27,265 nucleotides of DNA from Planctomycetaceae bacterium (GCA_015493185.1 WGDQ01000745.1:1-27265), one strand, 5' to 3'. Positions 5,061-27,265 are shown, numbered from the stretch's first letter. A program made the numbers and translations. Notes: generated by a model from the sequence alone, not told the origin.

Positions 5061-5369
5061 TCACGAGGCGACCGGTCCCTCGTCCGTCGGTGGCGAGGAT
5101 GTTTCTTCCCGGCGGCTGCCACGGGCCTTGCGGACCTCGTAGTACATGTAGCCGCTGAAGGTTCCCAGAATGGTGAAGGGCATCGACATCATGAACAAGA
5201 TGCTCCAGAAGAACCCTTGCACCAAATCGCCGCCCTGCTGCGCATCGTTTGCCAACGCTTCTTTGCAGTTGGGACATGCCCATGCAAGATGCGGAAATAC
5301 CAACGGGCTGATCATCGCAATCGCGATGCCGACAGTCCAAACCAAGCGGTATCGGCCTTGGTGGTTCAT
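5061..5369 (-). CDS. Small exported CxxC membrane protein (signal peptide-ACPNC-TM helix), ~102 aa
   Basis: Hydrophobic signal ending AWA, then CPNC, then TM GFFWSILFMMSMPFTILGTFSGYMYY and a basic stop-transfer. GAGAGG lies upstream of ATG 5369. It is the last gene of the oxidase cluster. Confidence 0.75.
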   Translation of the reverse strand: MNHQGRYRLVWTVGIAIAMISPLVFPHLAWACPNCKEALANDAQQGGDLVQGFFWSILFMMSMPFTILGTFSGYMYYEVRKARGSRREETSSPPTDEGPVAS

Positions 5370-5401
5370 AATTCGATCAGCCTCTCGACAGGTCACGATC
5401 T

Positions 5402-5923
5402 TTAAGAAATCGGCACTGCGGCAGTGCGCTCCGGGTTGGCGGCGCTACACTGCGATTCGACGGAAGAACGGGTAGATATTATAGTTTTTTCGCCGCTCGG
5501 CGGGTAGAGATGGTAAAGCATCGCATAAATCACCACGCCTGTGACAGAAACATACAGCCAAATGGGAAAGGCCCATCGCACCACACGGCGGTGTGCTGCC
5601 CGGCGATCGCGCCAGCCGAAATAGATGCTCGCGATCGCCAAAAACGGAACCGTGGCGGCCAGCACAATGTGGGATATGAGGATCGCGAAGTACACCCCCC
5701 GCACCGGTCCGCTGCCGCCAAACGGGCGGCTTCCCGCCTGCGCGTGATAGACGAGGTAGCACACGAGAAACGCAATCGAAACGCCGAAGGCCCCCAGCAT
5801 CAGCCAGCGGTGCACGACTTCTCGATGCTGCTTGATGGCAACCAGGCCGGCTATCAGCAACAATGTGGCGGTGGCGTTGAGCGCGGCATTGATTGTTGGC
5901 AGCTCGGCCACGCCCCATGCCAT
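5402..5923 (-). CDS. DUF420-family membrane protein (oxidase-cluster associated)
   Basis: LPTINAALNATA, HRWLMLGAF, FLVCYLVYH, ILISHIVLA, HRRVVRWAFPIWLYVSVTGVVIY. Start placed at ATG 5923; GTG 6001, which overlaps the sco stop, is an alternative. Confidence 0.9.
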   Translation of the reverse strand: MAWGVAELPTINAALNATATLLLIAGLVAIKQHREVVHRWLMLGAFGVSIAFLVCYLVYHAQAGSRPFGGSGPVRGVYFAILISHIVLAATVPFLAIASIYFGWRDRRAAHRRVVRWAFPIWLYVSVTGVVIYAMLYHLYPPSGEKTIISTRSSVESQCSAANPERTAAVPIS

Positions 5924-5997
5924 CGGCACCCATGTTGGGCAGCCGAACGGCTCACCTGCCGGCACAAGCCCTTTCGCCGATAAGAAGCCCCAGCCGC

Positions 5998-6618
5998 TCA
6001 CGATCGCACCTCGAGCAGTTTGCGCAAACGAGCCTTCAGCCGTTCGACGTCTGTTGGGTCCGTACCTCGAAAATAGCCGACGACAGTTTGCTGCGGGTCG
6101 ACCAGTATCAGACGGTCGGAGTGCGTGCCCGGCTCTCCCGATACCAGAAATCTCCTTCGGGCCACATCGCGAATAGCATCCGGGTCGCCAGTGAGAAAAT
6201 GCCAACGCTCAAAATCGGCATGAAACCGCTGGGCGTATTCCCGCAAGATTTCCGGACTGTCGTACTGCGGATGCACGGTGATGCTCACAAACTGTAGTTC
6301 GGGCGTGTCGAAAGTTTGTTGAAGATCTTCAACCGCTTGATTGATCCGGATACACGCTCCGGGACAACTCGTAAAAAAGAAGCTGGCAATCCAATAGCGG
6401 CCCTCGAGCCGCTCGCTCGAAAACGGCTTACCTTGCTCGTCGGTGAGTGTGAACGGCTCGATACGCCGTCCAGTCAGGCCGGCCTGACCGGCAGCGGCAG
6501 CTTGGTTCGAGGTGGCCGTTGGCTCGATCCGCTCACGTTGGCTATGGCGCCAGCCGTACAACAGTGCCAGCGCGATCAGCACGGCGCCCCAACCGGCAAG
6601 CAAGTATCGCGGCTTCAT
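5998..6618 (-). CDS. sco: SCO1/SenC-family copper chaperone, 206 aa
   Basis: N-terminal TM anchor, FFTSCPGAC (CxxxC), distal His in GTHSDRLILVD, thioredoxin-fold pattern. ATG 6618 overlaps the permease stop (ATGA). Confidence 0.93.
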   Translation of the reverse strand: MKPRYLLAGWGAVLIALALLYGWRHSQRERIEPTATSNQAAAAGQAGLTGRRIEPFTLTDEQGKPFSSERLEGRYWIASFFFTSCPGACIRINQAVEDLQQTFDTPELQFVSITVHPQYDSPEILREYAQRFHADFERWHFLTGDPDAIRDVARRRFLVSGEPGTHSDRLILVDPQQTVVGYFRGTDPTDVERLKARLRKLLEVRS

Positions 6619-25207: not shown

Positions 25208-25563
25208 AGCGATCCTGATCGTCCGTTGTCAGCGTTTTCTTTTTTGCTTTTCGTGAGAGGTCGGTTGTTCGCGAAGCGGAAAAAAACCGCCGCCGGCCTC
25301 AGTGTTCGGCCAGCCAATCGGCCTGGCACCGGCTCGATTCAGTCCAGCGGCCCTGCAATCGGCAGGCGTTGCAAGCCAATGGTCCGCGAATCGATAAACG
25401 CATTTTTCAGCACGTATCCTTGGCCTGCCCGATGCGCCGCTTGGTTTTTCCGCACGCATCGAAGCAAGACAACTACTTGCGGCGATGTCGACCGAACGTT
25501 CGGCCCGTCTCGCGACGAGTTTCCCCCTTTTGCACGCCTGCCGCTGCACCCGGGCAACCTGCA

Positions 25564-26337
25564 TCAGAGCGGCCCGCTGATGCCACCGTCTTTGCGAACT
25601 CGCCAGAAGTGAATCGCCAGCAACAAAGCGACCGCCAGGGGAATTCCGATACAGTGCAGGACGTAAAACCGGTTGAGCGTCTCTTCGCCAACGAACCTCG
25701 CCCCCAACAAGACGAAACGAGCGTCGGAAGCGTCGGTGATCATGTCGATATCGCCAATCGTGAGCAGCGATTGCAACGGCCCCTCGCTGCCCAGCACTGG
25801 CGTTGCCCGGGCCATGTTCGATCCGACCGTGATGGCCCAAATCGCCAGTTGGTCCCAAGGCAACAGATAGCCGGTGAACGATAACAAGAGCGTTAACAGC
25901 AATAAGATTACCCCCACGACCCAGTTGAATTCTCGTGGAGGCTTATAGCTGCCGGTTAAAAACACCCGGTACATGTGCAGCCACACGGTAATCACCATCG
26001 CGTGGGCGCCCCAACGATGAATTTCGCGCAGAATGCCCAACGACGTCACGTCGCGCAGCGCGAGAATGTCGTTGTAGGCCCACTCCAGCGTGGGGCGATA
26101 GTAAAACATCAGGAGCACACCGGTCACGGTTTCGACGAGAAACAGAAAAAACGTCACGCCGCCCATGCACCAGGTGTAACTCAGAGCGATCCCTTGTCGT
26201 TTGATCGACACGGGATGCAGGTGCAGGAAAAAGTTGGTCAGCACCACGACGATCCGATTACGACGATCGACGGGCGCCGGGTGCCGAAAGATGCTTTTCC
26301 AGATCTGACTGTTGCGAATCGTTTCGCCGAGAGACAT
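25564..26337 (-). CDS. petB: Cytochrome b6-like N-terminal cytochrome b (4 TM), 257 aa
   Basis: [53 protein letters not shown], and C-terminus [10 protein letters not shown]. Confidence 0.97.
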
Positions 26338-26584
26338 AAGAATTCCGACCGGCTATGCTTCAGATTTTTTTCGGACAAACAAAAGAACTTTGGACCGACT
26401 TCGCCCGAGGGCGCGATGCCCTCGATCCCTCCATCGCGACAACCGGCTTTTGTCGGCCGTCACGTCCAATCGTTCATTACGATTCATTTACGCTCGCGAC
26501 ACACGAATTCGCCGCTTTATGCCGGCCTCGCGAAGAAGCCGCGTCGCCGGAAAGGCGACCCCGCCGACTCTCCAAGAGGCGCCG

Positions 26585-27265
26585 TCAAACAGGGATATAG
26601 CACGCCGGGTCAGACCACTGCCCCAGCTCTTCTTGGAAAATCTTGCTCTTGTCGATTTCGATCTGCCCGTCGTCCGCAATACGAATGGCATACCGCTCCA
26701 GGGGGCGTGGGGCGGGCCCTTCGAAATTGATGCCATCCTTGTAAAAGCCACTACCGTGGCATGGGCATTTGAATTTTTGCTCCGCCTCGAGCCAGTTGGG
26801 CGTGCAGCCAAGATGCGTGCAAACGCTGCGCAGCGCGTAAATTTGCTGCTCGCCTGCGTACTCGCCGTTCACCACCCAAACGCCGTACTGTGCTTTGAAC
26901 TTGGTTTCCACCACGCCGGGAGGAAAATCGGAAGGAAAACCAACTTTGAATGTGCTCGGCGGTTCGATCCGCACGTTGGGATACATGAAGCGAGCGAACC
27001 CGAGTGTCCACAAGCCGCTTGTGGCGGCCAACGACGAGAACCCCAAGCCGAGAAACGAGCCAAACAATATCGACATCACGCCACGCCGCGATTCCGTGGC
27101 TTCGGACTTGGCCGCCTTGGGCTTCGGCTTGGCATAGTCGGGCTTCGGCGGCATGGGCGGCACCACCCGCTTTGGCTTGGCCGGCGCCTTGGCCCCGGGC
27201 GAGGTCTTTGCCTGAGCGGCAGCCTCTTCCTTCGAGATCGGCCCAGGTTTATGCGCCTTACGGGC
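26585..27265 (-). CDS. petC: Rieske [2Fe-2S] protein of the Rieske/cytochrome b complex, 5'-truncated by the window end
   Basis: CTHLGC and CPCHGSGF boxes, and SRR twin-arginine followed by a TM helix. The frame stays open for 33 more codons from 27166 to the window end. Confidence 0.96.
   Translation of the reverse strand, partial: ARKAHKPGPISKEEAAAQAKTSPGAKAPAKPKRVVPPMPPKPDYAKPKPKAAKSEATESRRGVMSILFGSFLGLGFSSLAATSGLWTLGFARFMYPNVRIEPPSTFKVGFPSDFPPGVVETKFKAQYGVWVVNGEYAGEQQIYALRSVCTHLGCTPNWLEAEQKFKCPCHGSGFYKDGINFEGPAPRPLERYAIRIADDGQIEIDKSKIFQEELGQWSDPACYIPV

Follow-up and report, generated by a model that had tools for sequence, protein, structure and literature searches.

We analysed an entire 27,265-base contig (WGDQ01000745.1, hereafter the window) from a Planctomycetaceae bacterium, and propose, with a probability of roughly 0.78, that the gene cluster occupying most of it is the Pirellulales version of a phylum-wide aerobic respiratory branch that carries electrons from menaquinol to O2. 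The cluster comprises 19 genes, all on the minus strand, which span positions 5061-27265 of the window and run from a Rieske protein to a small CxxC membrane protein. That these genes encode a quinol-to-O2 branch is well supported by the predicted identities of their products: a Rieske/cytochrome b core, a membrane-anchored octahaem cytochrome c, two predicted type-1 copper proteins (Cup), a dihaem cytochrome c, and an A2-type aa3 oxidase with its assembly proteins. Gene families were assigned by using Pfam and NCBIfam, and every family named here was confirmed by Pfam, including the Rieske, b6, PetD core, COX1/2/3, CtaA/B, SCO1-SenC, and DUF420 families. An earlier interpretation made from the DNA alone (the sequence-only reading) had described about 20 co-oriented genes from Rieske to the CxxC protein, with no cytochrome c1 or cytochrome f and with no cytochrome c attached to CoxII. 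Nineteen genes were found at that place on the minus strand, and Pfam agreed on the other two points, with no match to a cytochrome c1 or cytochrome f family in the cluster. The contig is the longest of a genome bin that has 1003 contigs and is 80% complete, and the source DNA is present in hydrothermal-vent metagenome runs, all of them DNA runs.

Conservation of the cluster across Planctomycetota

The sequence-only reading had predicted that similar clusters exist in other planctomycetes, and this was upheld by a search for synteny. Relatives of the enlarged subunit IV encoded in the cluster were found in at least 592 species genomes; the best 80 were nearly all labelled Pirellulales or Planctomycetaceae, and the cultured Lacipirellula limnantheis I41 was among the carriers. 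Gene order was then counted in 50 species loci that had at least 10 kb of downstream flank. The order Rieske-b6-subunit IV-octahaem cytochrome-Cup-dihaem cytochrome-CoxII, with all genes co-oriented, was kept in 48 of these loci, and the dihaem gene was present in all 50. Two Cup copies were found in 45 loci, three copies in four, and a single copy in one. This gene arrangement is far beyond chance.

Linkage between the bc genes and the oxidase genes was assessed in 40 relatives of the same order, with orthologous CoxI defined by more than 75% identity. In 21 of the 40, subunit IV and orthologous CoxI shared a contig, at a distance of about 10 kb, and in a further five they were separated only by contig ends; five relatives were without both. 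The possibility that bc and oxidase genes are usually unlinked in relatives, which the sequence-only reading had raised against itself, was thus checked, and the genes proved to be linked instead.

Across the phylum, the subunit IV family was present in 84 of 188 good genomes. When 20 regions were fetched from other families and classes, the full order was found to recur within the same class (L108, L109, L110, and L118). In other classes (L103, L111, L113, and L115), the order recurred without the dihaem gene, Cup standing directly before CoxII, and more distant lineages had the bc genes and a multihaem cytochrome only. No NAD(P) oxidoreductase gene was found in the window or upstream of Rieske in the relatives, where Rieske is preceded by either a divergent purD or a gene resembling GLUCM.

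A split cytochrome b core with an APWY motif

The first three genes of the cluster encode the bc core:

26585-27265, minus strand: Rieske 2Fe-2S protein, C-terminal 226 amino acids (Pfam PF00355); the 5' end is cut by the contig end
25564-26337, minus strand: cytochrome b6, 257 amino acids (Pfam PF00033/PF13631)
23888-25207, minus strand: enlarged subunit IV, 439 amino acids (Pfam PF00032, the PetD core, at residues 217-295)

The Rieske ligand motifs CTHLGC and CPCHGS were invariant in all 81 relatives examined. Full-length Rieske proteins in relatives have 346-392 amino acids and the window is the whole contig, which puts the loss at about 120-170 codons from the N-terminal part of Rieske. 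Cytochrome b was confirmed to be split, as in b6f-type complexes (the 'green clade'), a four-helix b6 being followed by a separate subunit IV in the next gene. The haem-binding His pairs of b6 (H107/H121 and H228/H243, with an extra residue in the helix-D pair) were invariant in 99 of 99 relatives, and C57, a CxGG-type haem-ci Cys within TWCMGG, was kept in 95 of the 99; this Cys is the putative attachment site of haem ci/cn. Subunit IV residues 184-297 matched subunit 4 of b6f in the Protein Data Bank (PDB), and hydropathy estimates gave about 8-10 transmembrane helices, with extra helices on both sides of the PetD part.

The Qo motif of subunit IV read APWY in 86 of 86 relatives, rather than the PEWY of b6f. 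Moreover, for PetG, PetL, PetM, and PetN, there was no Pfam family in the cluster and no small hydrophobic open reading frame (ORF) in its gaps. Given that APWY is invariant, the bc core was assigned to the APWY clade of Kao and Hunte. This assignment was made by motif; the clade shares the split cytochrome b, counts Planctomycetes among its members, and was stated to be uncharacterised (PMC4122944).

The membrane-anchored octahaem cytochrome

Two genes follow subunit IV:

19102-23533, minus strand: octahaem membrane-anchored cytochrome c, 1476 amino acids as mended (Pfam PDZ and class-I cytochrome c domains)
18807-18995, minus strand: small Ser/Pro-rich lipoprotein, 62 amino acids, with lipobox LIGGAC (ORF; no family match)

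In the window, the octahaem cytochrome appears as two overlapping ORFs, at 21968-23533 (521 amino acids) and 19102-22056 (984 amino acids). They are separated by an extra G at 22058, within a GGGG run; Logan contigs assembled from four runs, drawn from three studies, do not have it. When base 22058 was deleted, the frames fused as GWVSSHYVGMGITHLWDFPMYPKRF, with relatives matching on both sides. In 58 of 61 relatives, one uninterrupted ORF encodes the protein, with exactly eight CxxCH motifs, and database homologues of 1440-1600 amino acids covered 99-100% of the mended protein. Because the extra G is missing from four independent assemblies, the split results from an error in the assembly of the bin, and the alternatives of two genuine genes or of programmed frameshifting were rejected on the same ground.

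The mended protein reads, in order, an N-terminal transmembrane helix, a long helical stretch, CITCH, the PDZ domain, CTICH, and six more CxxCH motifs. When solved structures were searched with the whole sequence, only PDZ domains were matched. The small lipoprotein downstream appears to be a weak, lineage-restricted part of the cluster: small lipoproteins with a C-G...PPPGA motif stood in the corresponding gap of about 8 of the 61 relatives, which were the closest ones only.

The PDZ domain (22268-22486) is periplasmic, and PDZ is a module that binds C-terminal peptides. The C-terminal tail of the neighbouring subunit IV (23888-23905) is highly conserved and ends in PE(Y/F)FLNF, E434 being kept in 86 of 86 relatives and N438 in 84 of 86; topology counting indicates that this tail should be periplasmic. 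The PDZ domain and the subunit IV tail could therefore form a docking pair.

Two cupredoxins and a dihaem cytochrome between the bc core and the oxidase

The candidate periplasmic carriers are encoded by the next three genes:

17988-18767, minus strand: CupA, a predicted two-domain type-1 copper protein, 259 amino acids, with a plain signal peptide (identified by structure and ligands; no Pfam match)
16849-17748, minus strand: CupB, a CupA paralogue, 299 amino acids, 43% identical; a lipoprotein with a Gly/Ser-rich tether and the same ligand set
15497-16642, minus strand: dihaem class-I cytochrome c lipoprotein, 381 amino acids (Pfam PF13442/PF00034 twice)

More than 1500 Cup homologues were found, none with a Pfam domain, although some are labelled 'plastocyanin' by JGI. 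In 29 aligned sequences, CupB included, H131, C169, H172, and M175 were invariant, and the ligand loop reads CNIHPWM. A profile search of solved structures gave amicyanin as the best match, which was weak, with the ligands aligned. The AlphaFold2 (AF2) model of CupA had a pLDDT of 93.3. Foldseek matched its central ~100 residues to amicyanin, purple cupredoxin, plastocyanin, and pseudoazurin (probability 1.0, target TM ~0.7). The remaining ~130 residues form a second, Ig-like beta domain into which the amicyanin-like cupredoxin is inserted. The two-domain fold as a whole is found again in many unnamed AFDB clusters; in A0A353F767, it makes up residues 466-669 of a 672-amino-acid 'cytochrome c domain-containing protein', a natural fusion that supports a redox role for the Cup fold. 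Taken together, the modelled cupredoxin fold and the His-Cys-His-Met set support the prediction that CupA and CupB are type-1 copper proteins, and the two cupredoxins of the sequence-only reading are in this way borne out by model, fold matches, and invariant ligands. In relatives, the first Cup copy mostly has a plain signal peptide, and the second has a lipobox and a 40-60-residue tether in 46 of 52. One locus (L098, G014:C44, 9410-11950) has three Cup paralogues in tandem, placed between the octahaem and dihaem genes.

We also considered that the Cup proteins might act in the assembly of CuA or CuB, as copper chaperones or assembly factors in place of PCuAC or Cox11, leaving the dihaem cytochrome as the sole carrier. 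Known copper chaperones do use cupredoxin-like folds, the Pfam search of the cluster gave no match to PCuAC or Cox11/CtaG, and Cup stands beside SCO-DUF420 in some distant relatives (L117). The invariant His-Cys-His-Met set is, however, the classic electron-transfer type-1 site, with an amicyanin-type loop, and Cup lies between the octahaem cytochrome and CoxII, away from the assembly genes at the cluster end. In the classes without the dihaem gene, moreover, Cup is the only candidate carrier before CoxII, and the fold is found fused to a cytochrome c domain. We thus regard a chaperone role as very unlikely.

The first domain of the dihaem cytochrome has as its relatives in the PDB c552 and the cytochrome c domain of Thermus caa3 subunit II, both of which are CuA donors. 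This likeness would suit an A2 oxidase without the usual fused cytochrome.

The A2-type oxidase and its assembly genes

The oxidase subunits and haem synthesis proteins are encoded by the following genes:

14410-15213, minus strand: CoxII with CuA site (Pfam COX2_TM and COX2); no cytochrome c domain
12602-14413, minus strand: CoxI, A2-type (Pfam COX1, E=3.6e-154; NCBIfam CtaD_CoxA)
11521-12597, minus strand: CtaA, haem a synthase family (Pfam PF02628, COX15-CtaA)
10622-11524, minus strand: CtaB, haem o synthase (Pfam UbiA; NCBIfam TIGR01473, above cut-off)
9453-10358, minus strand: CoxIII with a soluble insertion of about 100 amino acids by hydropathy estimate (Pfam COX3 in two stretches; NCBIfam)
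8716-9165, minus strand: CoxIV, prokaryotic type (Pfam PF03626, COX4_pro)

The CuA ligands of CoxII (H194, C229, E231, C233, H237, and M240) were invariant in 57 of 57 relatives, and this full set marks CoxII as belonging to a cytochrome c or cupredoxin oxidase, not to a quinol oxidase. CoxI reads YSHPAV, the A2 signature that replaces the glutamate motif of A1 oxidases in helix VI, and YSHP was found in 13 of 13 aligned relatives. The cluster ends with five further genes:

7559-8506, minus strand: ABC transporter ATPase, DrrA-like (Pfam ABC_tran; NCBIfam drrA subfamily, below cut-off)
6615-7460, minus strand: ABC-2 permease, DrrB-like (Pfam ABC2_membrane; NCBIfam)
5998-6618, minus strand: SCO1/SenC copper chaperone, membrane-anchored (Pfam PF02630)
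5402-5923, minus strand: DUF420 membrane protein (Pfam PF04238, E=2.3e-42)
5061-5369, minus strand: small CxxC membrane protein, last gene of the cluster (no family match; a homologue at the equivalent position in genomes G035 and G036)

In NCBIfam, the ABC pair fell neither with NosFY nor with any copper system; it scored highest against DrrAB-like families, though below cut-off, so that a copper role for this pair is a guess.

A proposed electron route and the evidence that bears on it

We infer the direction and order of electron flow, the roles of the carriers, and any physical association of the products. The Rieske protein, b6, and enlarged subunit IV would oxidise menaquinol at an APWY-type Qo site, and the Rieske cluster would pass electrons to the membrane-anchored octahaem cytochrome, which would substitute for cytochrome f or c1. 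From the octahaem chain, electrons may reach the periplasmic carriers, namely the secreted Cup, the lipid-tethered Cup, and the lipid-tethered dihaem cytochrome c. These carriers would then reduce CuA and, through it, haem a and the haem a3-CuB site of the A2-type aa3 oxidase, where O2 would be reduced and protons pumped. CtaA and CtaB would make haem O and haem A, and copper or thiols would be handled by SCO, DUF420, and the CxxC protein, possibly with the ABC-2 exporter as well. The sequence-only reading had put forward periplasmic wiring that combines multihaem c with type-1 copper and is for the most part membrane-anchored. The first point agrees with the identities and conserved ligands described above, and the second with the transmembrane helix of the octahaem protein and the lipoprotein character of CupB and the dihaem cytochrome.

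Several observations weigh against this route. The order of Cup and dihaem cytochrome in the chain is not readable from sequence. Intergenic gaps of 200-356 nucleotides separate many of the genes, even b6 and subunit IV, so that a single transcript cannot be assumed. Two further Rieske/cytochrome b loci (on contigs C540, locus L093, and C108, locus L094) and a cbb3 oxidase fragment (C441, locus L095) with CcoN, FixO, and a P-type ATPase are present in this genome; the genome alone therefore does not fix how complexes and oxidases are paired. For complexes of the APWY type, reverse operation has been suggested (PMC4122944). Furthermore, genomes G035, G036, and G007 keep the series from Cup, dihaem cytochrome, CoxII, and CoxI through to the CxxC gene without bc genes upstream, which indicates that the oxidase module can draw electrons from elsewhere.

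This separability bears directly on how the products are organised. In G035 and G036, purD and the GLUCM-like gene precede Cup, just as they precede Rieske in full clusters, which shows that the block from Rieske to the octahaem cytochrome was cleanly lost. Genome G030 presents the opposite case: the genes from Rieske through the octahaem cytochrome, Cup, and dihaem cytochrome are followed directly by CtaA-CtaB, with no CoxII or CoxI at the locus, and its sole A-type oxidase sits elsewhere in the genome. The bc and oxidase modules are thus not always together, and the constant co-occurrence expected of an obligate supercomplex did not hold in these four genomes; the 'supercomplex' of the sequence-only reading was a conjecture. 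Since Cup and the dihaem cytochrome stay with either half, they form a constant hub, which fits carriers better than subunits of an obligate supercomplex.

The products might nevertheless form a stable, obligate bc-aa3 supercomplex similar to those of Actinobacteria or SoxM, with the carriers as fixed subunits of a solid-state wire. In keeping with such an assembly, the genes stay very tightly colinear throughout the phylum, each of the carriers has either a membrane anchor or an extra domain of docking type, and the PDZ domain of the octahaem protein could dock with the conserved subunit IV tail; there are precedents in Actinobacteria (PMC8795186) and in SoxM (PMC3062577). On the other hand, the bc half (G035, G036, and G007) or CoxII/I (G030) has been lost cleanly while the rest was kept, the flexible 40-60-residue lipoprotein tethers suit mobile shuttles better than fixed subunits, and the Cup copy number varies from one to three. 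A multimer prediction of CoxII with mature CupA, made with purpose-made alignments, scored 0.00 and carries no weight for or against binding. Overall, carriers that shuttle between separable complexes, or a loose assembly, are more likely, and an obligate supercomplex seems unlikely. Somewhat more doubtful still is a fixed menaquinol:O2 megacomplex in which the octahaem protein is clamped to subunit IV, perhaps through the PDZ domain and tail, and the Rieske protein is wired through copper and dihaem centres to CuA. Such a megacomplex, if it existed, would be a bacterial counterpart of archaeal SoxM with a haem-copper-haem wire, a kind unseen in bacteria.

For Acidithiobacillus ferrooxidans, a reversed or bifurcating arrangement of the rus and petI systems has been proposed. 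Applied to the present cluster, this would mean that a periplasmic high-potential donor delivers electrons to the octahaem cytochrome or cupredoxin, and from there both downhill to aa3 and uphill, by way of the APWY-type bc complex, to the quinone pool. The cluster's cupredoxin, dihaem c4-like cytochrome, and aa3 oxidase recall the parts list of the rus operon, and the DNA comes from hydrothermal-vent metagenomes. In addition, Kao and Hunte linked Pro at position 2 of the Qo motif, as in APWY, to reverse operation (PMC4122944), and the anammox relatives have been proposed to have non-standard energetics (PMC12954380). Nonetheless, the cluster encodes no outer-membrane cytochrome or donor-oxidising enzyme, and no NAD(P) oxidoreductase subunit occurs in relatives. 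It is carried, moreover, by hundreds of Pirellulales species, the cultured Lacipirellula limnantheis included, and these carriers are, as far as is known, ordinary aerobic heterotrophs, which also counts against reverse flow. The constant linkage to aa3 points to forward quinol oxidation and challenges the published idea that APWY-type bc complexes operate in reverse (PMC4122944). We therefore hold to the forward menaquinol-to-O2 route and consider a reversed or bifurcating one hardly probable.

The additional Rieske/cytochrome b loci differ from each other. One encodes a 616-amino-acid cytochrome b together with a multihaem cytochrome of class I that has at least 820 amino acids, and the other a 348-amino-acid long cytochrome b, a cytochrome of a seven-haem family, and a response regulator. 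Elsewhere, a paralogous A-type CoxI, about 45% identical, was found about 3 kb from a long cytochrome b (G005:C1:835705-840187 and G035:C2:1481048-1486041). Pirellulales may thus have a second kind of bc-oxidase gene linkage.

Comparison with known respiratory systems

The bc part resembles complexes of anammox bacteria, its closest relatives among those that have been studied. In the complexes of Kuenenia stuttgartiensis (Kustd1480-1485 and Kuste4569-4574), a member of the same phylum, cytochrome b is likewise b6-like with four helices, and subunit IV is enlarged (PMC12954380). Compared by description only, they also replace cytochrome f with a membrane-anchored hexa- or octahaem cytochrome c, and the long helices of Kustd1485 resemble the N-terminal part of the octahaem protein in the window (PMC12954380). 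However, the anammox complexes alone have an NAD(P) oxidoreductase subunit and, in Kuste4569-74, also an HAO-like octahaem protein, and they lack linkage to an oxidase (PMC12954380). Their subunit IV has five helices, whereas that of the window is larger (439 amino acids), and here cupredoxins, a dihaem cytochrome c, and aa3 follow.

The bcc-aa3 system of Actinobacteria shares with the present cluster the path from menaquinol to O2 without need of a soluble cytochrome c, a multi-haem c subunit belonging to the bc part, accessory subunits that are lipoproteins, and bc and oxidase genes that are partly linked (PMC8795186, PMC8523172). It differs in having an unsplit cytochrome b, a dihaem cc, no copper carrier, and a supercomplex proven by structure (PMC8795186, PMC8523172). 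The system predicted here has a split b with a haem-ci Cys, and eight haems together with predicted type-1 copper.

The closest functional precedent is SoxM of Sulfolobus acidocaldarius with its sulfocyanin (cited in PMC3062577), which the sequence-only reading had not mentioned. There, a bc-analogous module and a haem-copper oxidase are likewise encoded together, and the membrane-bound blue-copper protein sulfocyanin carries electrons from the Rieske/b part to CuA; SoxM is archaeal, has no c-type cytochromes, uses another cupredoxin family, and has a fused subunit I+III (PMC3062577).

Photosynthetic b6f with plastocyanin is similar in its split b, the 14/15 spacing of its His residues, its CxGG Cys, and its cupredoxin acceptor. 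The present cluster, by contrast, lacks genes for cytochrome f and PetG/L/M/N and has APWY where b6f has PEWY, and its chain would end at an oxidase, not at a photosystem. The rus operon of Acidithiobacillus ferrooxidans, like the cluster, brings together a cupredoxin (rusticyanin), a dihaem cytochrome (c4), and aa3. It differs in serving Fe(II) oxidation in an acidophilic proteobacterium, in including an outer-membrane cytochrome, and in having its bc1 in a separate operon; this rus-associated bc1 has Pro at Qo position 2. In Flavobacterium johnsoniae, the ACIII and aa3 gene clusters are adjacent. As proposed here, a lipid-anchored multihaem wire leads there from a quinol oxidase to an aa3-type oxidase, but the quinol module belongs to the unrelated molybdopterin-enzyme family and cupredoxins are lacking (PMC8552683).

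All parts of the cluster are thus of known kinds, and functional precedents exist, but the combination matches none of them: it joins a b6f-like core, an anammox-like octahaem cytochrome, plastocyanin/amicyanin-like carriers, and an A2 oxidase without the usual fused cytochrome c. It is not a new principle. The sequence-only reading had called the system undescribed. That stands insofar as a literature search, with most subscription journals outside it, turned up no account of this cluster in aerobic planctomycetes; it does not stand for the bc core, which falls within the published APWY clade and resembles the Kuenenia complexes. Planctomycetota are abundant in soils, waters, and sediments, yet we know of no biochemical study of aerobic respiration in the phylum. 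The cluster is probably its main quinol-to-oxygen route, and this can be tested directly in cultured carriers such as Lacipirellula limnantheis I41.

Noncoding stretches and neighbouring genes

Promoter and terminator scans over the cluster gave nothing above shuffled expectation, with no terminator in any minus-strand gap, and these results carry no information on co-transcription. Scans of the whole window for tRNA and Rfam families gave no match. The spacers on either side of subunit IV (23534-23887 and 25208-25563) are about 355 nucleotides long, compared with about 40-150 nucleotides in relatives; they contain no convincing ORFs and show 8-10-nucleotide indels among strain variants. Downstream of the cluster, about 900 bases (4174-5060) gave no convincing gene and no Pfam, tRNA, or Rfam match. 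Beyond these, at 82-3538, a MoxR AAA+ ATPase (bpMoxR Pfam match) adjoins a PQQ beta-propeller ORF (1161-3164). The latter shares about 390 nucleotides with a TPR ORF (2774-3538), and the two may be one frameshifted gene of a MoxR-vWA-beta-propeller system. A MoxR homologue was also found a few kb past the cluster in G030, G035, and G036.

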